A stretch of 64,000 nucleotides of DNA from the NCBI RefSeq assembly GCF_003334335.1, contig NZ_QOWQ01000026.1. One strand, 5' to 3'. The translations under genes were made by a program, and so were the position numbers. The notes beneath the pieces were generated by a model, which saw nothing but the letters and a program-made list of their open reading frames with translations, did no database searches and was not told the DNA's origin. The DNA is from Escherichia coli (GTDB lineage Bacteria > Pseudomonadota > Gammaproteobacteria > Enterobacterales > Enterobacteriaceae). Positions within the stretch are counted from its first letter, which is position 1, and every line of letters starts with the position of its first letter. Below, in pieces: positions 1,137-9,997 of this stretch.

Positions 1137-2060
1137 TCAGGCATGCTCCAGTGAAAAATTCGGGTAGTGCTCGGCAAAATACTGGCGTAAAAATTCTACC
1201 GTTATCCGCACTTTCGCTGACGTCGCCAGCCTTGAAACATAAACGGCCCAGACGTTCGCTGGCTGGTAATATTCCGGTAGCACTTGCACTAAATGACCAC
1301 TGGCAATGTTTTCGCTAACATCCCACCAGGAACGCAGAGCAATCCCCTGCCCATCGAGACACCACTGATGGACAATTTCTCCATGATTAGACGACAGTGG
1401 GCCGGTGACTTTAATCGCATGGGGGCCTTCTTTATTGCGTAATTGCCAGACACCAAAAGGATGATCGCGCTCTTTAATGACCAGGCACGGCAATGCAGAA
1501 AGATCGGTTAAATGTTTCGGCGCGCCATGTTGCGCAATAAATTCCGGCGACGCGCAGAGAATACGGTAATTGGTCGCCAGTTTGCGGGCGATTAAATTAG
1601 GGGCGATGTCATCGCCAATGCGAATATCGAGATCGACACCTTCATTGACCAAATCGACCAGTCGGTCTTCCACATCAAAACGTAATTCCAGTTGCGGATA
1701 CGCCTTCGCCAGCGCTGATAACGCCGGAGCCACCACCTGTCGTCCAAAACCAAAGCTGCTGATAATACGCAGCATCCCCTGCGGCACCTGACGCACGTCA
1801 GAAAGTTCGTCCATCATCTGACCGACATCCTGCAAAATCCGCTGCGCCCATTCATAAATCCGCTCTCCTTCTTCGGTAATGGTGACGCGGCGGGTGGTGC
1901 GGTGTAACAACACCACGTTTAGCGTTTGCTCCAGCAAGGCGATGCGCTTGCTGACGAACGCCGGTGAAACGCCCAGTTCTTCCGCCACGGCGGCAAAACC
2001 AGCCCGGCGAGCCACCAGCATAAAGACGCGCAAATCATTCAGCAGCGGTAAATTATTCAT
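1137..2060 (-). CDS. dmlR: LysR-family transcriptional regulator of dmlA
   Basis: ORF track 1137..2081; N-terminal HTH; start trimmed to the internal ATG (MNNLPLL...) giving 307 aa; divergent from dmlA. Confidence 0.9.
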   Translation of the reverse strand: MNNLPLLNDLRVFMLVARRAGFAAVAEELGVSPAFVSKRIALLEQTLNVVLLHRTTRRVTITEEGERIYEWAQRILQDVGQMMDELSDVRQVPQGMLRIISSFGFGRQVVAPALSALAKAYPQLELRFDVEDRLVDLVNEGVDLDIRIGDDIAPNLIARKLATNYRILCASPEFIAQHGAPKHLTDLSALPCLVIKERDHPFGVWQLRNKEGPHAIKVTGPLSSNHGEIVHQWCLDGQGIALRSWWDVSENIASGHLVQVLPEYYQPANVWAVYVSRLATSAKVRITVEFLRQYFAEHYPNFSLEHA

Positions 2061-2162
2061 GATTCGTGTTTTATGTTTCACCAGTTACGGGGATTAATTC
2101 CTTTTCAGTCAATTATAGGATGGTGATGTTGTCAATTTTGATGGTCAGGAAGTGAGAACCCA

Positions 2163-3248
2163 ATGATGAAAACGATGCGTATTGCTGCGATCCCGGGAGA
2201 CGGGATTGGCAAAGAAGTCCTTCCTGAAGGGATTCGCGTGTTACAGGCTGCCGCTGAGCGCTGGGGCTTCGCCTTGAGTTTTGAGCAAATGGAGTGGGCG
2301 AGCTGCGAGTATTACAGCCATCACGGTAAAATGATGCCGGACGACTGGCATGAGCAACTTAGCCGTTTCGACGCCATCTATTTTGGTGCCGTCGGCTGGC
2401 CGGATACCGTTCCGGACCATATTTCGTTGTGGGGTTCGCTGCTGAAATTTCGTCGTGAATTCGACCAGTACGTCAACCTGCGCCCGGTTCGTCTCTTTCC
2501 TGGCGTTCCCTGCCCGCTGGCGGGAAAACAGCCTGGCGACATCGATTTTTACGTGGTCAGGGAAAACACCGAAGGCGAATATTCCTCGCTCGGCGGTAGA
2601 GTGAATGAAGGTACAGAGCATGAAGTCGTCATTCAGGAATCGGTATTTACCCGCCGTGGTGTCGATCGCATTTTGCGTTATGCCTTCGAACTTGCGCAAA
2701 GCCGTCCACGTAAGACACTAACTTCTGCCACTAAATCGAACGGTTTAGCCATCAGCATGCCGTACTGGGATGAGCGAGTGGAAGCAATGGCCGAGAATTA
2801 CCCGGAGATCCGCTGGGACAAGCAGCATATTGATATTCTCTGCGCGCGTTTTGTGATGCAGCCGGAACGATTCGATGTGGTGGTGGCGTCCAATTTGTTT
2901 GGCGATATCCTTTCCGATCTTGGCCCGGCCTGCACCGGCACCATTGGCATTGCCCCATCCGCCAACCTGAATCCGGAACGCACTTTCCCGTCGCTCTTCG
3001 AGCCTGTCCACGGTTCCGCGCCGGATATCTACGGGAAAAATATTGCTAACCCTATCGCCACGATTTGGGCCGGGGCAATGATGCTCGATTTTCTCGGCAA
3101 TGGCGATGAGCGTTTCCAGCAAGCGCATAACGGTATTCTGGCAGCAATTGAAGAAGTGATTGCTCACGGGCCGAAAACACCTGATATGAAAGGCAATGCC
3201 ACCACGCCACAGGTTGCCGACGCGATTTGCAAAATTATTTTGCGTTAA
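2163..3248 (+). CDS. dmlA: D-malate dehydrogenase (decarboxylating), isocitrate/isopropylmalate dehydrogenase family
   Basis: ORF track 361 aa; IPMDH/tartrate dehydrogenase-type sequence. Confidence 0.95.
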   Translation: MMKTMRIAAIPGDGIGKEVLPEGIRVLQAAAERWGFALSFEQMEWASCEYYSHHGKMMPDDWHEQLSRFDAIYFGAVGWPDTVPDHISLWGSLLKFRREFDQYVNLRPVRLFPGVPCPLAGKQPGDIDFYVVRENTEGEYSSLGGRVNEGTEHEVVIQESVFTRRGVDRILRYAFELAQSRPRKTLTSATKSNGLAISMPYWDERVEAMAENYPEIRWDKQHIDILCARFVMQPERFDVVVASNLFGDILSDLGPACTGTIGIAPSANLNPERTFPSLFEPVHGSAPDIYGKNIANPIATIWAGAMMLDFLGNGDERFQQAHNGILAAIEEVIAHGPKTPDMKGNATTPQVADAICKIILR

Positions 3249-3267
3249 GGTCAAACCAGTTTATTTG

Positions 3268-3294
3268 AACCGCGTCACTGACGCGGTTTTTTTA
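3268..3294 (+). terminator. rho-independent terminator after dmlA
   Basis: Hairpin ACCGCGTCACTGACGCGGT followed by an 8-T run. Confidence 0.65.
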
Positions 3295-3438
3295 TTCGTT
3301 CTTTGCAGTAAATAACCTGCGTCATTTCACCTTTTATTGTTTCCGTTTCGTGTTTTATGGCTTTCCGTATTCTTAATTGTTTAATTTATGTAACATGCAA
3401 ATTTTGTTACGCGTACGTTAGGTTCCGCCGTACAGGTA

Positions 3439-4884
3439 TTGGTTTTGCTGGCAATGGGACTGGTGATTTATTTAGCCACCAGTAAATACGGCAATATTCG
3501 TCTTGGCGAAGGAAAACCGGAATACAGCACGCTCTCCTGGCTGTTTATGTTTATTTGTGCCGGTTTAGGTTCTTCTACGCTTTATTGGGGGGTTGCTGAA
3601 TGGGCCTATTATTATCAAACACCTGGATTAAATATCGCACCGCGTTCACAACAGGCACTCGAATTTAGCGTTCCCTACTCTTTCTTCCACTGGGGCATCA
3701 GCGCCTGGGCAACTTATACGCTGGCCTCATTAATCATGGCTTATCACTTTCATGTGCGGAAAAACAAAGGTCTGAGCCTTTCCGGCATTATTGCTGCTAT
3801 TACCGGCGTTCGCCCGCAAGGCCCATGGGGAAAACTGGTCGATTTGATGTTCCTGATCGCCACTGTCGGCGCACTGACCATTTCCCTTGTTGTTACCGCA
3901 GCAACCTTTACCCGTGGGCTTTCCGCGCTGACCGGTTTACCCGATAACTTCACCGTGCAGGCATTTGTGATCCTGCTTTCCGGCGGCATTTTTTGCCTAA
4001 GCTCGTGGATTGGTATCAACAACGGTTTGCAACGTCTGAGCAAAATGGTTGGCTGGGGCGCGTTCCTGCTGCCATTACTGGTGCTGATTGTCGGCCCAAC
4101 CGAATTTATTACCAACAGCATCATCAATGCCATCGGCCTGACCACGCAAAACTTCCTGCAAATGAGCTTATTCACCGATCCGCTTGGCGATGGTTCATTT
4201 ACCCGCAACTGGACCGTTTTCTACTGGCTGTGGTGGATCTCATACACCCCTGGCGTAGCAATGTTTGTCACCCGCGTTTCCCGCGGTCGTAAGATTAAAG
4301 AAGTTATCTGGGGACTGATCCTCGGCAGCACCGTCGGTTGCTGGTTCTTCTTTGGCGTAATGGAAAGCTATGCCATTCATCAGTTTATCAATGGCGTAAT
4401 CAACGTCCCACAGGTGCTGGAAACACTGGGCGGCGAAACAGCTGTACAGCAAGTTCTGATGTCGTTGCCAGCCGGTAAATTGTTCCTCGCCGCATACCTG
4501 GGCGTGATGATTATTTTCCTTGCCTCGCATATGGATGCAGTGGCCTACACCATGGCGGCGACCAGTACGCGTAATCTCCAGGAAGGTGACGATCCTGACC
4601 GTGGGCTGCGTCTTTTCTGGTGCGTGGTGATCACTCTGATCCCGCTTTCCATCTTGTTTACCGGTGCTTCGCTGGAAACGATGAAAACCACCGTCGTGCT
4701 CACAGCCCTTCCCTTCCTCGTCATTTTACTGGTGAAAGTCGGCGGGTTTATTCGCTGGCTGAAACAGGATTACGCCGACATTCCGGCTCATCAAGTTGAA
4801 CATTATCTCCCGCAGACACCGGTTGAAGCCCTGGAAAAAACGCCAGTGCTCCCTGCAGGAACCGTATTCAAAGGCGACAACTGA
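3439..4884 (+). CDS. yeaV: BCCT-family transporter (betaine/carnitine/choline type)
   Basis: ORF track 481 aa, polytopic membrane protein; immediately upstream of yeaW/yeaX. Confidence 0.9.
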
Positions 4885-4915
4885 GCGCCATCATCCTAAC
4901 GATAAAGGTATCCCT

Positions 4916-6040
4916 ATGAGCAATCTGAGCCCTGACTTTGTACTACCCGAAAATTTTTGCGCTAACCCGCAAGAGGCGTGGACCATTCCTGCCCGTTTTT
5001 ATACCGATCAGAACGCGTTTGAACACGAAAAAGAGAACGTCTTCGCCAAAAGCTGGATTTGCGTCGCTCACAGCAGCGAACTGGCGAATGCCAATGATTA
5101 TGTGACGCGTGAGATCATTGGCGAAAGCATCGTGCTGGTACGCGGTCGTGATAAGGTTTTGCGCGCGTTCTATAACGTGTGTCCGCACCGTGGTCATCAG
5201 TTGTTGAGCGGTGAAGGAAAAGCAAAAAATGTGATTACCTGCCCGTATCACGCATGGGCATTCAAACTCGATGGCAACCTGGCCCATGCACGTAACTGCG
5301 AAAACGTCGCCAATTTCGATAGCGACAAAGCGCAACTGGTTCCGGTGCGTCTGGAAGAATATGCCGGATTCGTCTTCATCAACATGGACCCCAACGCCAC
5401 CAGCGTAGAAGATCAATTACCCGGCCTGGGCGCGAAAGTGCTGGAAGCCTGCCCGGAAGTCCACGATCTGAAACTGGCGGCCCGCTTTACCACCCGCACG
5501 CCTGCCAACTGGAAGAACATTGTCGATAACTATCTCGAGTGCTATCACTGTGGTCCGGCGCATCCAGGTTTCTCCGACTCCGTACAGGTTGATCGTTACT
5601 GGCACACCATGCACGGTAACTGGACGCTGCAATACGGTTTCGCCAAACCGTCCGAACAGTCGTTTAAATTTGAAGAGGGTACGGATGCGGCATTCCACGG
5701 TTTCTGGCTGTGGCCGTGCACGATGCTGAACGTCACCCCGATCAAAGGGATGATGACGGTCATTTATGAATTCCCGGTGGATTCTGAAACTACCCTGCAA
5801 AACTACGATATTTACTTCACCAATGAAGAGTTAACCGACGAGCAAAAATCGCTGATTGAGTGGTATCGCGATGTGTTCCGTCCGGAAGATTTACGTCTGG
5901 TTGAAAGCGTACAGAAAGGGCTGAAATCGCGTGGCTATCGTGGTCAGGGGCGCATCATGGCCGACAGTAGCGGTAGTGGCATTTCCGAACATGGTATCGC
6001 CCATTTCCATAATCTGCTGGCGCAGGTGTTTAAGGACTAA
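4916..6040 (+). CDS. yeaW: Rieske [2Fe-2S] non-heme iron oxygenase subunit (carnitine monooxygenase-type)
   Basis: ORF track 4796..6040 trimmed to ATG 4916 (MSNLSPDF..., 374 aa) with AAAGG SD; CxH...CxxH Rieske motif visible (CPHRGH...CPYHAW). Confidence 0.9.
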   Translation: MSNLSPDFVLPENFCANPQEAWTIPARFYTDQNAFEHEKENVFAKSWICVAHSSELANANDYVTREIIGESIVLVRGRDKVLRAFYNVCPHRGHQLLSGEGKAKNVITCPYHAWAFKLDGNLAHARNCENVANFDSDKAQLVPVRLEEYAGFVFINMDPNATSVEDQLPGLGAKVLEACPEVHDLKLAARFTTRTPANWKNIVDNYLECYHCGPAHPGFSDSVQVDRYWHTMHGNWTLQYGFAKPSEQSFKFEEGTDAAFHGFWLWPCTMLNVTPIKGMMTVIYEFPVDSETTLQNYDIYFTNEELTDEQKSLIEWYRDVFRPEDLRLVESVQKGLKSRGYRGQGRIMADSSGSGISEHGIAHFHNLLAQVFKD

Positions 6041-6095
6041 TGACATCGGCGGCGGTATTTTCCGCCGCTGGGCTGATTTTTGATGGAGTACAGCA

Positions 6096-7061
6096 ATGTC
6101 AGACTATCAAATGTTTGAAGTACAGGTGAGCCAGGTTGAACCCCTTACCGAACAGGTGAAACGCTTCACGCTGGTGGCAACCGATGGCAAACCATTACCT
6201 GCGTTTACCGGAGGAAGTCACGTCATTGTGCAGATGAGCGATGGTGATAACCAGTACAGCAATGCGTATTCACTACTGAGTTCGCCGCATGACACCTCTT
6301 GTTATCAGATTGCCGTTCGGCTGGAGGAAAACTCGCGCGGCGGTTCCCGCTTTTTGCATCAGCAGGTAAAAGTGGGCGATCGGTTAACGATTTCAACGCC
6401 TAATAACCTGTTTGCGCTAATTCCCTCAGCCAGAAAGCATCTGTTTATCGCGGGCGGTATTGGTATCACCCCTTTCCTGTCGCACATGGCAGAGCTGCAA
6501 CACAGCGACGTCGACTGGCAGCTACATTACTGCTCGCGAAATCCAGAAAGTTGCGCATTTCGTGATGAGCTAGTCCAGCATCCGCAGGCTGAGAAAGTCC
6601 ATTTGCATCATTCATCAACCGGAACACGACTGGAATTAGCGCGATTATTGGCGGATATCGAACCTGGCACACACGTTTATACCTGTGGCCCCGAGGCGCT
6701 AATTGAAGCGGTAAGAAGTGAAGCTGCGCGTCTGGACATCGCCGCCGATACGCTGCACTTTGAGCAATTTGCTATCGAAGACAAAACCGGCGATGCATTT
6801 ACCCTGGTGCTTGCCCGTTCCGGAAAAGAGTTTGTGGTGCCGGAAGAGATGACTATTTTGCAGGTTATTGAAAATAATAAAGCCGCGAAAGTGGAATGTT
6901 TATGTCGTGAAGGGGTATGCGGAACCTGCGAAACAGCAATACTGGAAGGTGAAGCTGACCATCGGGATCAATATTTTAGCGATGAAGAGCGTGCCAGCCA
7001 GCAAAGTATGTTGATCTGTTGTTCGCGTGCGAAGGGTAAACGCCTGGTGTTGGATTTGTAG
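6096..7061 (+). CDS. yeaX: oxidoreductase/reductase partner of YeaW (FMN/FAD-NAD binding plus C-terminal 2Fe-2S ferredoxin domain)
   Basis: ORF track 321 aa; C-terminal CxxxxCxxC...C ferredoxin motif (CREGVCGTCE...C). Confidence 0.9.
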   Translation: MSDYQMFEVQVSQVEPLTEQVKRFTLVATDGKPLPAFTGGSHVIVQMSDGDNQYSNAYSLLSSPHDTSCYQIAVRLEENSRGGSRFLHQQVKVGDRLTISTPNNLFALIPSARKHLFIAGGIGITPFLSHMAELQHSDVDWQLHYCSRNPESCAFRDELVQHPQAEKVHLHHSSTGTRLELARLLADIEPGTHVYTCGPEALIEAVRSEAARLDIAADTLHFEQFAIEDKTGDAFTLVLARSGKEFVVPEEMTILQVIENNKAAKVECLCREGVCGTCETAILEGEADHRDQYFSDEERASQQSMLICCSRAKGKRLVLDL

Positions 7062-7065
7062 TTTG

Positions 7066-7108
7066 CCGAAGCCGGATGTGGCGCTGAGCGCGCCCAGTCC
7101 GGCTTCGG
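7066..7108. repeat. REP-like palindromic element between convergent yeaX and rnd
   Basis: Inverted repeat CCGAAGCCGGA ... TCCGGCTTCGG with GC-rich loop; resembles REP (GCCGGATG...) motifs. Confidence 0.5.
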
Positions 7109-7114
7109 AAGATT

Positions 7115-8242
7115 TTACTGCGGATATTCCTGCAATAAATTGTGTAATGCTTCCGCCATCAGCTCACCACGCCAGCCGGAAATCAGCTCCGGCAAATTGT
7201 TCTGCGGTTTCAGTTTCCAGTGCCAGTTCAGCAGTTGGTTGATTTGCCGACGCGATGCCAGCAATTCGGCGCTGATCTTATGCGTTTCGCTCACGTCAGT
7301 AATCAGCGACTTAATCGCTTTAAACGCTTTACGATAACCCGGCATGTCCATCAGGTTAAGCATCGGCTGCGGTAAGGCATCTTCCGGCAATGTCTGCGCT
7401 TTTTCCACCAGCGCTAGCAGCGTTTTACCGTGAAAGCGGATTTCGCTACCGGATAAACCCAGGCTGTCCAGTTCGCCTAAACTTCCCGGCATATAACGCG
7501 CTACCGACCACAAATGCTCTTCACGCACGACAAAGTTCACCGCCAGATCGCGCTCTCGCGCCTTGCGCAGTCGCCAGTCGGCTAACAGTTGCAGACAGGC
7601 CAGTTGGCGTGTGCGTAATTGCCAGGCATTGGTGATATCACGCCAGGCATCTTCCGGCGCAACGACTTCCTGACGACGCATTTGCATCAGGCGGCATTCA
7701 TCCAGCGCCGCAGGTAGCCAGCCGGAGGCCTCCGTTTCTACCATAAGCTTGGCGGTGATCGGTAACAGATACCAGACATCCGCCGCTGCGTATTCACACT
7801 GACGTTCGGTCAGCGGTCTGGCCAGCCAGTCGGTGCGCGATTCACTCTTGTCCAGCGTAACGCCGGAATACTCTTCCACCATGGAAGCGAAACCCCATGA
7901 CATCGGGCGTCCGCAGAAGGCAGCAAGGATTTGCGTGTCAATCAAGGGTTGTGGTAATTCGCCAAAGACATTGAGGAACACTTCCAGATCTTCACTGCCT
8001 GCATGGAGAAATTTTGTGATGGACGGATCGCGCAGGATCGCTTTCAGCGGTGACCAGTCGGTGATCCCGAGTGGATCGATTAGCGCCAGATGCTCGCCAT
8101 CGAAAAGTTGAATCAACCCCAGCTGCGGGTAATAAGTGCGCGTACGAACAAATTCAGTATCCAGGGCTATCGCCGGAAAGGCACGGACGGCTTCACACAA
8201 AGAAGCCAGCGCATCGTCCGTGGTAATCATTTGGTAATTCAA
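7115..8242 (-). CDS. rnd: ribonuclease D
   Basis: ORF track 375 aa; start codon is TTG (rc of 8240-8242), as reported for E. coli rnd. Confidence 0.9.
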   Translation of the reverse strand: MNYQMITTDDALASLCEAVRAFPAIALDTEFVRTRTYYPQLGLIQLFDGEHLALIDPLGITDWSPLKAILRDPSITKFLHAGSEDLEVFLNVFGELPQPLIDTQILAAFCGRPMSWGFASMVEEYSGVTLDKSESRTDWLARPLTERQCEYAAADVWYLLPITAKLMVETEASGWLPAALDECRLMQMRRQEVVAPEDAWRDITNAWQLRTRQLACLQLLADWRLRKARERDLAVNFVVREEHLWSVARYMPGSLGELDSLGLSGSEIRFHGKTLLALVEKAQTLPEDALPQPMLNLMDMPGYRKAFKAIKSLITDVSETHKISAELLASRRQINQLLNWHWKLKPQNNLPELISGWRGELMAEALHNLLQEYPQ

Positions 8243-8266
8243 ATTGTTTTCTCTTTAGTGGGCGTC

Positions 8267-8291
8267 AAAAAAAACGCCGGATTAACCGGCG
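8267..8291 (-). terminator. rho-independent terminator downstream of fadD, in the rnd leader
   Basis: Minus strand CGCCGGTTAATCCGGCG hairpin followed by T8. Confidence 0.65.
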
Positions 8292-8311
8292 TCTGACGAC
8301 TGACTTAACGC

Positions 8312-9997
8312 TCAGGCTTTATTGTCCACTTTGCCGCGCGCTTCGTCACGTAATTCTCGTCGCAAAATTTTTCCGACGTTAGATTTCGGTAACTCATCAC
8401 GAAACTCCACCAGCTTCGGTACTTTGTATCCCGTGAGCTGACGGCGGCAAAAAGTCACCAGTGACTCTTCGGTAAGCGATGGATCTTTTTTCACTACGAA
8501 GATTTTCACCGCTTCACCACTGGAGCCGGAAGGTACGCCAACAGCCGCGACTTCCTGTACGCCAGGATGCTGCATGACGACATCTTCAATCTCGTTGGGA
8601 TAGACGTTAAAACCGGAAACCAGAATCATGTCTTTTTTACGATCGACAATGCGCAGGAATCCTTCTTCATCCATTACCGCGATGTCGCCGGTGTGTAACC
8701 AGCCATTTTTGATGATTTCATCGGTAGCATCGGGACGCTGCCAGTAACCCAGCATCACCTGCGGTCCTTTGACACAAAGCTCACCCGGTTGACCTGGTGG
8801 TACTTCATTATCATCATCATCCACCAGTTTGGCTTCCGTCGACGGCACCGGCAAACCGATGCTACCACTATGATAATCAATATCATATGGGTTAACGCTG
8901 ACCAGCGGCGCACACTCGGTAAGGCCATAGCCTTCCAGCAGATACTGTCCGGTCAGTTTCACCCAACGCTCTGCCACCACTTGCTGCACTGGCATCCCAC
9001 CGCCTGCGGAAAGATGCAGACTGGAGAAATCCAGCTGCTGGAACTCTTTATTGTTCAGCAACGCATTGAACAAGGTGTTAACGCCCGTGATAGCGGTAAA
9101 CGGATATTTCGCTAACTCTTTTACCAACCCTGGAATATCGCGCGGGTTAGTGATAAGCAGGTTCTGCCCACCCAGTTCGATAAACAGCAGGCAGTTAATG
9201 GTCAGGGCAAAAATGTGATACAGCGGCAGCGCCGTCACCACCAGCTCTTTGCCCGGATGCAACAGCGGACCATAGGTCGCGTTAACCTGTTCCAGGTTCG
9301 CCAGCATATTGCGGTGAGTCAGCATCGCGCCTTTCGCCACACCAGTGGTGCCGCCGGTGTATTGCAGAAAAGCTAAATCTTCCGGCACCAGTTCGGGTTT
9401 GACGTACTGCATCCGGTAGCCGTTATGCAGTGCGCTACGAAATGAAATGGCATCTGGCAGATGGTATTTCGGCACCAAACGCTTGATGTATTTAACAACG
9501 AAATTGACTACCGTGCCTTTTGCCGTAGATAGCTGATCGCCCATACGGGTCAGAATTACGTGCTGAACGGCGGTTTTATCAACCACTTTTTCCAGTGTGT
9601 GAGCAAAGTTAGACACGATAACAATCGCCGATGCGCCGCTATCGTTAAGCTGATGCTCAAGCTCACGCGGGGTATACAACGGGTTAACGTTTACGACGAT
9701 CATCCCGGCACGCAAAATGCCAAACAGCGCCACCGGATATTGCAATAAATTAGGCATCATCAACGCAACGCGATCGCCTTTCTTCAGCCCCAACCCTTGT
9801 TGCAAATAAGCGGCAAACGCGCGACTGCGTTCTTCCAGCTTGCGGAAGGTCATTACCTCCCCCATATTCACAAACGCAGGTTGATCGGCGTAGCGCGCGA
9901 CCGACTGCTCAAACATATCTACCAGAGATTGATAACGGTCAGGGTTGATCTCCGTCGGAACGTCCGCGGGATAACGGTTAAGCCAAACCTTCTTCAA
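8312..9997 (-). CDS. fadD: long-chain fatty acid-CoA ligase
   Basis: ORF track 8312..10063; trimmed to TTG start at 9997 (read as [10 protein letters not shown]..., 561 aa) with GAGGTGA SD; AMP-binding motifs. Confidence 0.9.

Follow-up and report, generated by a model that had tools for sequence, protein, structure and literature searches.

The dmlR-dmlA-yeaVWX locus of Escherichia coli K-12 is very probably an aerobic carnitine catabolic cluster eroded by the loss of msadh and by a 225-bp deletion in yeaV

How can a species that encodes a carnitine monooxygenase be regarded as unable to use carnitine? The question is raised by yeaV-yeaW-yeaX, the E. coli carnitine-to-trimethylamine operon, which is already known and published. 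It was analysed here in a window of 64,000 nucleotides (the whole stretch of DNA under study), in which positions 3000-7500 were found by sequence comparison to match E. coli K-12 MG1655 with 100% identity. In our reading, the locus is very probably the E. coli aerobic carnitine catabolic cluster, eroded by the loss of the malic-semialdehyde dehydrogenase gene (msadh) and by a 225-bp deletion in yeaV. Direct reading of the sequence confirmed the tight linkage described in the initial annotation, with a gap of 31 nt containing an AAAGG Shine-Dalgarno sequence between the end of the yeaV stop codon (4884) and the yeaW ATG (4916), and a gap of 55 nt between the end of the yeaW stop codon (6040) and the yeaX ATG (6096). 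The protein families assigned there (BCCT transporter, Rieske oxygenase, ferredoxin-reductase fusion) were likewise recovered by profile and domain matches. The features of the locus are:

1137-2060, minus strand: dmlR, LysR-type regulator, ortholog of Acinetobacter carR (RefSeq annotation)
2063-2075, plus strand: first copy of the TTCGTGTTTTATG motif, followed by TTTCACC, in the dmlR-dmlA divergent control region
2163-3248, plus strand: dmlA, D-malate dehydrogenase (decarboxylating); TIGR02089, 565 bits
3267-3296, plus strand: intrinsic terminator after dmlA, 10-bp stem and T7 run
3347-3359, plus strand: second copy of the TTCGTGTTTTATG motif, ~60 nt 5' of the transcription start predicted for yeaV; candidate DmlR site
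3377-3405, plus strand: predicted yeaV promoter remnant (-35 TTGTTT at 3377-3382, 17-nt spacer, broken -10)
3401-3402: junction of the 225-bp deletion, with 1-nt ambiguity, from alignment with O157:H7
3403-4884, plus strand: yeaV remnant, homologous to codons 44-536 of full-length yeaV
3439-4884, plus strand: conventional yeaV ORF, TTG start, 481 aa
4904-4908, plus strand: AAAGG, Shine-Dalgarno sequence of yeaW, 7 nt 5' of its ATG, read from the sequence
4916-6040, plus strand: yeaW (cntA), oxygenase subunit of carnitine monooxygenase, ATG start, 374 aa
6046-6088, plus strand: conserved intercistronic element, comprising a hairpin (6046-6071), a T-run (6077-6081) and the yeaX ribosome-binding site GGAG (6085-6088)
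6096-7061, plus strand: yeaX (cntB), reductase subunit (FMN, NADH, plant-type [2Fe-2S]), ATG start, 321 aa
7066-7108: long GC hairpin between the convergent yeaX and rnd, bidirectional terminator-like, -37.2 kcal/mol, z = -6.4

In regard to the enzyme, YeaW holds Rieske and Ring_hydroxyl_A domains (Pfam), matches the CntA structure PDB 6y8j with E = 9e-197 and shares 73.1% identity with Acinetobacter CntA over 368 aligned residues. Alignment with CntA and CntB and inspection of the substrate pocket had been suggested in the initial annotation as the check on a carnitine monooxygenase architecture, with low identity and a divergent pocket as signs against it; identity proved to be high, and all 19 published CntA residues that were compared (Rieske ligands, 2-His-1-Asp iron site, bridging Glu, substrate pocket and inhibitor contacts; residue list in PMC7948474) are identical in YeaW. 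The Rieske [2Fe-2S] ligands of the form C-x-H...C-x-x-H (CntA C86, H88, C106, H109) correspond to YeaW C89, H91, C109 and H112, and the 2-His-1-Asp site of the mononuclear iron (CntA H208, H213, D323) to H211, H216 and D325. The bridging CntA Glu205, which replaces the usual Asp and is described as a signature of CntA-type (group V Rieske) oxygenases (PMC5433236), is E208. In the quaternary-amine pocket, 7 of 7 residues are kept, CntA Y203 (pi-cation), Y225, N270, Y295, F258, Y315 and F319 being YeaW Y206, Y228, N272, Y297, F260, Y317 and F321, respectively.

A syntenic cntB follows 55 nt downstream in the form of yeaX, whose product is 52% identical to A. nosocomialis CntB over its full length. 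YeaX contains FAD_binding_6 (9-103), NAD_binding_1 (117-207) and Fer2 (240-313) domains (Pfam), a GGIGITP motif at 120 and the cysteine pattern C270-x4-C-x2-C...C (cysteines 270-309). This is the class IA order of FMN-binding, NAD-binding and C-terminal plant-type [2Fe-2S] domains, shared with phthalate dioxygenase reductase (PDB 2pia, class IA), which YeaX matches end to end (residues 9-321, E = 2e-56), although that reductase partners an aromatic-ring oxygenase and YeaX a quaternary-amine oxygenase. Both proteins are named carnitine monooxygenase subunits in RefSeq, and K-12, O157, SE11 and REL606 share one YeaW protein accession. E. coli YeaW and YeaX have been purified, their cofactors identified and their activity on carnitine demonstrated in vitro, where they are interchangeable with CntA and CntB, accept both carnitine and gamma-butyrobetaine, depend on the reductase for any oxygenase activity, and cleave L-carnitine in an O2- and NAD(P)H-dependent reaction to trimethylamine (TMA) and malic semialdehyde (PMC9508527). 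The earlier remark that substrate specificity is debated is therefore out of date for the enzyme, as it has been characterised in vitro (PMC9508527) and as YeaW of DH10B is identical in sequence to the CntA of E. coli SE11 (PMC6200775). The identity and the chemistry of YeaW/YeaX are shown by published biochemistry together with the orthology measured here.

The adjacency of yeaVWX to dmlR and dmlA, already pointed out in the initial annotation, is meaningful, since dmlR-dmlA-yeaVWX is one conserved five-gene carnitine-to-pyruvate cluster, with gene order maintained from Acinetobacter to Escherichia. The Acinetobacter baumannii cluster carR-mdh-bcct(aci01347)-hyd-cntA-msadh-cntB (Zhu 2014; Breisch 2018; Piskol 2024) shares the five genes in the same order and orientation, with identities of 45-49% for the regulator, about 72% for mdh/dmlA, 54% for the transporter, 73% for CntA/YeaW and 52% for CntB/YeaX. 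The regulator range comes from tblastn of DmlR against the correspondingly placed gene of about 30 Acinetobacter loci (a DmlR-CarR identity of 45% is given by Piskol 2024), and DmlA is 69-74% identical to the mdh products of Acinetobacter clusters. Several differences accompany these similarities. The Acinetobacter cluster has hyd and msadh whereas the E. coli cluster lacks both; the dmlA-yeaV interval of E. coli contains a terminator and a predicted promoter of its own, compared with a mere 57-nt gap in Acinetobacter; a conserved hairpin precedes cntB in E. coli but not in Acinetobacter; and, compared with the Acinetobacter transporter gene, the copy in the window is 5'-truncated.

According to the pathway that we propose, YeaV as a 12-helix BCCT secondary transporter would import L-carnitine and probably gamma-butyrobetaine. 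YeaX, with FMN and a plant-type [2Fe-2S] centre, passes electrons from NAD(P)H to the Rieske cluster of a YeaW trimer, which uses O2 at the mononuclear iron to hydroxylate carnitine at C4. The hydroxylated product breaks down to trimethylamine and malic semialdehyde, the latter would be oxidised to D-malate, and DmlA, regulated by the LysR-type DmlR, would convert D-malate to pyruvate and CO2. A carnitine pathway via D-malate has been demonstrated, with the DmlA-type step as the last one to pyruvate (PMC11353897).

The step from malic semialdehyde to D-malate is the one affected by the first erosion. In Acinetobacter, many Citrobacter and many Xenorhabdus, msadh separates cntA from cntB; in Citrobacter sp. 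R56, the gene at this position has 8s33 as its top PDB match and is 64% identical to the Acinetobacter gene. In all four Escherichia loci sampled, from three named species, neither msadh (in the 55 nt between yeaW and yeaX) nor hyd (in the 31 nt between yeaV and yeaW) was found. The Citrobacter clusters dmlR-dmlA-bcct-cntA-msadh-cntB (Citrobacter sp. R56, C. youngae CCUG 30791) adjoin rnd as in E. coli, have YeaV and YeaW identities of 88-94% to E. coli, and share the E. coli leader, the promoter hexamers and the hairpin/T-run/GGAG element before cntB, but clusters of the Citrobacter sp. R56 type retain an msadh of 488 aa that E. coli does not have. The 55-nt yeaW-yeaX spacer is homologous to the Citrobacter msadh-cntB intergenic region and carries a 'GGCTGTAA' scar. 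Judging from these comparisons, Escherichia has lost msadh, and the spacer is the former msadh-cntB intergenic hairpin element. Independent msadh losses, with an 8-nt msadh tail left behind, were found in C. portucalensis, C. braakii and C. youngae ATCC 29220.

Such a loss invites the explanation that the E. coli cluster, devoid of msadh and hyd, is not catabolic at all, and either trims intracellular carnitine and gamma-butyrobetaine in compatible-solute homeostasis, or clears gamma-butyrobetaine derived from the anaerobic Cai pathway when oxygen returns. Piskol 2024 proposes a non-catabolic role for clusters without msadh, and the absence of the gene from the four sampled Escherichia loci, the acceptance of gamma-butyrobetaine besides carnitine by YeaW in vitro and the rarity of cntA transcripts in gut metatranscriptomes are all in its favour. 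However, dmlA and dmlR, sensible only downstream of malic semialdehyde, remain tightly linked to the operon and subject to purifying selection (11 synonymous substitutions, 1 nonsynonymous), the negative growth data come solely from strains with a truncated yeaV, and the missing step could be filled by GabD, which is 62% identical to MSA-DH (Piskol 2024). We consider a non-catabolic role unlikely, while still giving it some weight.

The second erosion of what we take to be a catabolic cluster concerns the transporter gene. The initial annotation was right in placing a BCCT transporter gene at 3439-4884, but the gene is not intact: it is a 5'-deleted allele without ribosome-binding site, ATG, TM1 and part of TM2. 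The protein matches the YeaV equivalog profile NF007412 with 968.8 bits against a cutoff of 647, yet the ORF in the window covers profile positions 56-536 of 536 whereas O157 YeaV covers 1-536, and the full set of 12 BCCT helices including TM1 and TM2 is not present. Alignment with O157:H7 identified the DNA missing from the K-12 allele as L002:3403-3627. This segment comprises the remainder of the predicted -10 box, a ~90-nt leader, the ribosome-binding site GGAG and codons 1-43 with the ATG, and its loss removes TM1 and a third of TM2. TTG 3439 is codon 56 of full-length yeaV and the first start codon surviving the deletion, the natural start being elsewhere, and reading of the sequence showed neither TTG 3439 nor ATG 3454 to be preceded by a suitably spaced Shine-Dalgarno. 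Counted from that TTG, hydropathy and the structure model place TM1 and about two thirds of TM2 outside the annotated K-12 ORF. Mapped on the AlphaFold model of full-length YeaV (pLDDT 80, pTM 0.80; H1 at residues 10-29, H2 at 31-69), H1 is absent and H2 cut.

The difference is read as a deletion in K-12 because the N-terminus encoded by the 225-bp segment is conserved across genera (Citrobacter, Xenorhabdus, Shimwellia, Acinetobacter) and completes the 536-position profile, and an insertion in O157 was rejected on the same grounds. Of 5426 complete E. coli genomes, 1438 (26.5%) contain the exact 40-nt junction, BL21 and REL606 among them. The deleted segment is present, as an intact allele, in 2930 of 5426 (54%), including SE11 and O157, and the block is absent in about 1057 of 5426 (about 19.5%), which lack the cluster. 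A laboratory artefact was rejected, as the 1438 genomes come from humans, livestock and wild animals.

The closest solved fold to the YeaV model is that of CaiT, the L-carnitine/gamma-butyrobetaine antiporter (PDB 2wsx, 2wsw; TM-score 0.84-0.91, 27-28% identity). CaiT and YeaV alike are LeuT-fold members of the BCCT family, but YeaV scores 346 bits on the CaiT equivalog, below its cutoff of 541, DddT is the nearer solved relative by sequence, and CaiT is an exchanger while the Acinetobacter YeaV ortholog is a pmf-dependent importer. For this ortholog, Aci01347, carnitine transport has been shown and is essential for growth on carnitine; from its 54% identity to YeaV, the YeaV substrate is probably carnitine as well.

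The deletion also reaches into the control region. The 13-nt repeat TTCGTGTTTTATG is exact, has only its 2 matches in the 64 kb at up to 1 mismatch (0.13 expected) and is conserved in Escherichia, Citrobacter and Shimwellia; its second copy is a candidate DmlR site. The terminator after dmlA is invariant across Escherichia and Citrobacter; in Acinetobacter, with an mdh-bcct gap of about 57 nt, no equivalent was found. The predicted -35 and -10 hexamers of yeaV do not vary among 8 intact sequences from Escherichia and Citrobacter, and the K-12 junction falls inside the -10, which reads AATTTT in K-12 and AATAAT in intact alleles. A consensus sigma-70 scan upstream of yeaV returned no promoter in either allele because the hexamers score 8/12. 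The yeaV promoter, its transcription start and the control of yeaV by DmlR are predictions, the promoter being drawn from cross-genus conservation. An Rfam search of the intact locus gave no riboswitch and no sRNA, the sole match, isrK, being at chance level (19.8 bits, gathering score 50).

Because of the deletion, K-12, B and BL21 are expected to be severely impaired in native carnitine uptake and probably also in yeaVWX transcription. In the K-12 allele, yeaW and yeaX still code for a fully active enzyme. The opposite reading, that the 481-aa YeaV from TTG 3439 given in UniProt and GenBank is functional, the deletion phenotypically neutral and the three-gene operon intact and working, seems improbable to us. 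The truncated ORF does span the entire generic BCCT core (TIGR00842 positions 7-452 of 452), differs from O157 by 22 synonymous and 0 nonsynonymous substitutions, and is found across many hosts in the quarter of genomes counted above; furthermore, serum was reportedly depleted of carnitine when the K-12 ORF was overexpressed, an indirect metabolomic signal (PMC10971958), so K-12 YeaV may retain activity under forced expression. Against this stand the lost helices, the start codons lacking a Shine-Dalgarno, the broken predicted -10 box, the conservation of the missing N-terminus as far as Acinetobacter, the RefSeq annotation of K-12 yeaV as a pseudogene with 'missing N-terminus', and the K-12 derivative MKH13, which accumulates no 14C-carnitine.

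The GC hairpin noted in the yeaW-yeaX gap proved to be real. It consists of CGGCGGCGG-TATTTT-CCGCCGCTG at 6046-6071, followed by TTTTT at 6077-6081, and the 65-nt stretch folds at -27.5 kcal/mol compared with -15.6 +/- 2.6 for shuffles (z = -4.5, 0 of 200 as good). Across 16 loci, pairing is kept in 93% of cells, compared with 34-51% in slid controls, with compensatory changes in 6 of 10 stem pairs; a chance GC palindrome was rejected by both the shuffle z-score and the covariation. The hairpin most likely acts as a partial terminator or an mRNA-stabilising stem setting the oxygenase-to-reductase ratio. That it is a full terminator, with yeaX as a separate transcription unit outside the operon, is very doubtful: a terminator scan does flag it as terminator-like (10-bp stem with 8 GC pairs, T5 run), but in E. 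coli the T-run starts 5 nt beyond the stem, only 24 nt with no promoter-like site separate the hairpin from yeaX, 16 loci retain the element along with the ribosome-binding site of yeaX, and the reductase is obligatory for activity (PMC9508527).

What do these alleles mean for E. coli? Growth on carnitine is not seen in BL21, B or K12, no activity was detected in BL21 extract, and the claim that the E. coli cluster 'serves a different function' is based on these strains (PMC11353897). The listing of K12 as a 'confirmed' carnitine degrader (Jameson 2018) was rejected, being traced to Rath 2017, where K12 DNA was only a qPCR standard. K-12, B and BL21, that is, every laboratory strain behind the conclusion that E. 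coli cannot use carnitine, carry the same 225-bp yeaV defect, whereas yeaV is intact in SE11, reportedly the strain originally cited for native carnitine conversion. The failure of the laboratory strains could stem entirely from missing msadh or missing induction and not from the yeaV deletion. We nevertheless suggest, tentatively, that the lesion and not a property of the species explains the lack of native carnitine uptake, monooxygenase activity and growth in these strains, and that the 54% of genomes with the intact allele may carry a DmlR-controlled, inducible yeaVWX turning carnitine or gamma-butyrobetaine into TMA where oxygen is available, for example in the inflamed gut.

The operon itself is textbook-level in the TMA/TMAO field, and the practical value of our findings lies in the truncated-allele caveat. 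As a consequence of the deletion, the standard 481-aa YeaV entry, the Keio deletion and the ASKA clone are models of a truncated protein. Given three allelic states, strain choice and cntA-based gene counting are not neutral. Among the carriers of cntA in the human gut, E. coli predominates (PMC5433236), and if the lesion does explain the laboratory phenotype, cntA gene counts in microbiome studies would mix functional and crippled loci.

Between window positions 3000 and 7500, the sequence is 100% identical to that of MG1655 (E. coli K-12), and a partial or full match to this stretch was found in 5426 of 5426 complete E. coli genomes. The features relevant here, with the genes as in the RefSeq annotation of the same stretch, are:

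dmlR, minus strand
dmlA, plus strand
3439-4884, plus strand, yeaV, BCCT transporter
4916-6040, plus strand, yeaW, CntA-type oxygenase
6046-6071, plus strand, stem-loop CGGCGGCGG/TATTTT/CCGCCGCTG, from direct reading
6096-7061, plus strand, yeaX, CntB-type reductase
rnd, minus strand

The ORF coordinates of the initial annotation agree with the ORF calls. Its description of the gaps also holds: the 31-nt yeaV-yeaW spacing carries an AAAGG, located 7 nt upstream of the yeaW ATG, and the junction sequence and its folding place a GC hairpin in the 55-nt yeaW-yeaX spacing. Likewise, for the proposed CntA/CntB-type identity, neither low identity nor a divergent pocket was found. YeaW aligns over its whole length with Acinetobacter CntA, as given by crystal structure PDB 6y8j (E = 9e-197), with 73.1% identity in the alignment carrying the functional residues from PMC7948474. 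All 19 residues mapped from that set are identical in YeaW, comprising the four Rieske ligands, the His-His-Asp iron site, the signature bridging Glu, a Cys pair, seven pocket residues including the pi-cation Tyr, and two inhibitor-contact Phe. YeaX is 52% identical to A. nosocomialis CntB over the full length, and its domain order (FMN-binding, NAD-binding, plant-type ferredoxin) is that of phthalate dioxygenase reductase. RefSeq already names both proteins as carnitine monooxygenase subunits. Piskol et al. (2022, PMC9508527) worked with purified YeaW and YeaX of E. coli: they determined the cofactors, assayed activity and inhibition, and obtained active YeaW/CntB and CntA/YeaX chimeras; the residues critical in that work were all found in the window proteins (YeaW R83, K104, K117 and E330; YeaX R271, K313 and D320). 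As the substrate range has been measured in vitro (carnitine and gamma-butyrobetaine high, glycine betaine medium, choline very low; PMC9508527), the debate on substrate specificity referred to in the initial annotation concerns physiology and not the enzyme. The enzyme identity is thus nothing new, and the operon is real, rightly identified and already known.

What was overlooked is that yeaV is truncated in the window. The coordinates are right for the ORF, but the start at 3439 is artefactual, the gene being truncated at its 5′ end; RefSeq flags K-12 yeaV as a pseudogene with "missing N-terminus". The YeaV equivalog profile NF007412 is matched by the window ORF only over positions 56-536 of 536, and by the 536-aa O157:H7 protein over positions 1-536. 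Alignment of K-12 with the intact O157:H7 allele revealed a clean 225-bp deletion in K-12 (junction 3401/3402, 1 nt of ambiguity). The lost DNA comprises yeaV codons 1-43 and the 96 bp preceding the ATG, among them the GGAG ribosome-binding site. The first in-frame start codon remaining is the TTG at 3439, equal to codon 56, and reading of the sequence upstream disclosed no usable Shine-Dalgarno for it. In an AlphaFold model of YeaV from 18 orthologs (mean pLDDT 80, pTM 0.80), whose best structural matches are CaiT carnitine transporters (TM-scores 0.84-0.91), helix 1 spans residues 10-29 and the long helix 2 residues 31-69, in concurrence with hydropathy. With a start at codon 56, TM1 is therefore missing, and of TM2 the annotated K-12 protein retains no more than the final 14 residues. 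The deleted N-terminus is conserved in Citrobacter, Xenorhabdus, Shimwellia and Acinetobacter, where the alignment begins at residue 2, and this conservation indicates that the lost part is ancestral.

A simple "dead gene" reading of this allele is opposed by two observations: the truncated ORF still covers the entire generic BCCT core in the profile search, and a metabolomics screen of K-12 knockout and overexpression strains recorded carnitine depletion on yeaV overexpression. On the balance of evidence, native expression and uptake are crippled in the K-12 allele, while the truncated protein may retain partial activity when its expression is forced. In Escherichia whittamii Sa2BVA5 (L008 7448-8969), yeaV is present as two overlapping ORFs (7448-8032 and 7965-8969), an apparent frameshift that is possibly an independent transporter inactivation or an assembly error.

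In regard to published phenotypes, Piskol et al. (2024, PMC11353897) already recognised the five-gene orthology and the missing hyd and msadh genes, saw neither carnitine monooxygenase activity in BL21 extract nor growth on carnitine by BL21(DE3), B or K12, and raised the possibility of another function for the E. coli cluster; truncation or a pseudogene is not mentioned there. All three of these strains have the 225-bp deletion. In Acinetobacter, growth on carnitine requires the transporter, and accumulation of 14C-carnitine is absent in MKH13, a K-12 derivative. The "confirmed" K12 entry of Jameson 2018 was rejected as a phenotype, its source being a qPCR standard.

Among the 5426 complete genomes, the locus is present in 4369, the 225-bp segment in 2930 and the exact K-12 junction in 1438, so that the two alleles (4368 genomes together) cover practically every locus-positive genome. 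Junction carriers come from humans, pigs, poultry, dogs, opossum, bear, frog and sediment; an identical 43-nt junction is common to MG1655, BL21(DE3) and REL606, and SE11 has an intact yeaV with the same protein accession as O157. A few genomes hold other lesions at the deletion spot: HS-02 has just 125 of the 225 bp, and in ET734 the junction is matched with yeaV unannotated. The remaining genomes, about 1057 of the 5426, match at the rnd end only. In one of them, ST131 strain 5506 (L003 8652-9003), the dmlR-dmlA-yeaVWX block is reduced to three decayed scraps, one of dmlR (168 bp) and two of dmlA (170 bp at 92% and 37 bp at 86% identity), and the sequence picks up again 24 nt upstream of the yeaX stop. 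Judged from these remnants, the ST131-type absence represents an old, multi-step erosion of the ancestral block. The 225-bp deletion may follow phylogroup A, and the loss of the cluster phylogroup B2. Between K-12 and O157, synonymous and nonsynonymous differences number 22 and 0 in the shared part of yeaV, 8 and 0 in yeaW, 16 and 5 in yeaX, and 11 and 1 in dmlA. The cluster has therefore been under purifying selection, with no further decay of the K-12 yeaV remnant. In the E. coli B lineage (BL21(DE3) and REL606; L005 44270-45382 and L006 1-234), yeaR, which lies four genes ahead of the cluster, is split by an IS421 (IS4-like) insertion. In SE11 (L088 584-2225), the interval from yeaQ to the yoaG homolog contains a TnpB/InsQ gene as well as a partial IS200/IS605 transposase gene.

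When E. coli proteins were mapped onto 80 loci, one genome per species, the order dmlR(-) dmlA bcct cntA cntB was found to be conserved from Acinetobacter to Escherichia, with the block adjoining rnd in Escherichia and Citrobacter. In all Acinetobacter, many Citrobacter and many Xenorhabdus, cntA and cntB are separated by a further gene of roughly 1.5 kb. The copy in Citrobacter sp. R56 encodes an aldehyde dehydrogenase of 488 aa, with 8s33 as top PDB hit and 64% identity to its positional counterpart in Acinetobacter; it is thus the malic-semialdehyde dehydrogenase of the pathway (PMC11353897). This gene, msadh, is absent from all four sampled Escherichia loci, some Citrobacter, two Xenorhabdus and Shimwellia. 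Citrobacter braakii ATCC 51113 has, on two contigs, one cntA cluster with msadh (L021, 88% YeaW identity) and another without it (L018, 92%).

The 55-nt E. coli spacer has its homologue in the stretch between msadh and cntB of those Citrobacter that carry msadh ("...CGGGCTGATTTTTAAGGGAG...ATG" versus "...TGGGCTGATTTTTGATGGAG...ATG"), and msadh-less Citrobacter retain the final 8 nt of msadh, GGCTGTAA. The stem-loop in this spacer is followed by TTTTT and then by GGAG, 7 nt upstream of the yeaX ATG. Its fold (-27.5 kcal/mol, z = -4.5) rejects a chance origin. Across 16 Escherichia and Citrobacter loci the stem sequence varies while pairing is maintained, with 93% of cells paired against 34-51% with slid partners, compensatory changes in 6 of the 10 stem pairs and a covariation score of 0.50 against 0.09-0.17. 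The hairpin is therefore a conserved RNA element directly upstream of the reductase gene, most likely acting in partial termination or mRNA stabilisation that would hold the oxygenase above the reductase. A second, long GC hairpin (7066-7108; -37 kcal/mol, z = -6.4) separates the convergent yeaX and rnd and resembles a bidirectional terminator; ST131 retains a shortened form of it despite the loss of yeaX.

The dmlA-yeaV spacer is strongly conserved between Escherichia and Citrobacter and contains the dmlA terminator, a GTGTTTTAT box and the hexamer pair TTGTTT-N17-AATAAT, a predicted promoter invariant in all eight intact sequences. A consensus scan missed this predicted yeaV promoter because the pair scores 8/12 against the consensus; promoters that depend on an activator typically have a weak -35. 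Transcription is predicted to begin roughly 7 nt past AATAAT (L002 3401-3406). In K-12, the deletion begins within the predicted -10 (AATAAT to AATTTT). Furthermore, the 64-kb window contains exactly two copies of the 13-mer TTCGTGTTTTATG, with 0.13 expected by chance and TTTCACC nearby. One copy (2063-2075) sits beside the start of dmlR, in the region between the divergent dmlR and dmlA, and the other (3347-3359) precedes the predicted yeaV transcription start by about 60 nt. The box upstream of the transporter gene is conserved out to Xenorhabdus. Such an upstream position is typical of a LysR-type activator site, so TTCGTGTTTTATG is a candidate shared operator through which DmlR, the CarR ortholog, may control both the dmlA and the yeaV units. 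In Acinetobacter, bcct follows mdh after about 57 nt without a terminator, whereas one is present between dmlA and yeaV in E. coli. Its T-run reads TTTTTTT in K-12 (3289-3296) and most relatives and TTTTGTT in O157:H7 (L002 3290-3297), where the change might allow more read-through into yeaV. A genomic SELEX study of CRP has yeaV on its list of predicted targets. The intact yeaV leader, missing from the window (L002 3452-3500), holds two small conserved stem-loops, CTGGCAAAAGCCAG and GGGC-loop-GCCC, directly upstream of the ribosome-binding site in Escherichia and Citrobacter, with constant stems, varying loops and no matching Rfam family.

Three things are added here to a known system: the truncated yeaV allele is described and counted across genomes, the intercistronic hairpin is traced to its origin and its conservation established, and a testable hypothesis of a shared operator is put forward. 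They refine that system and do not amount to a new kind of system.
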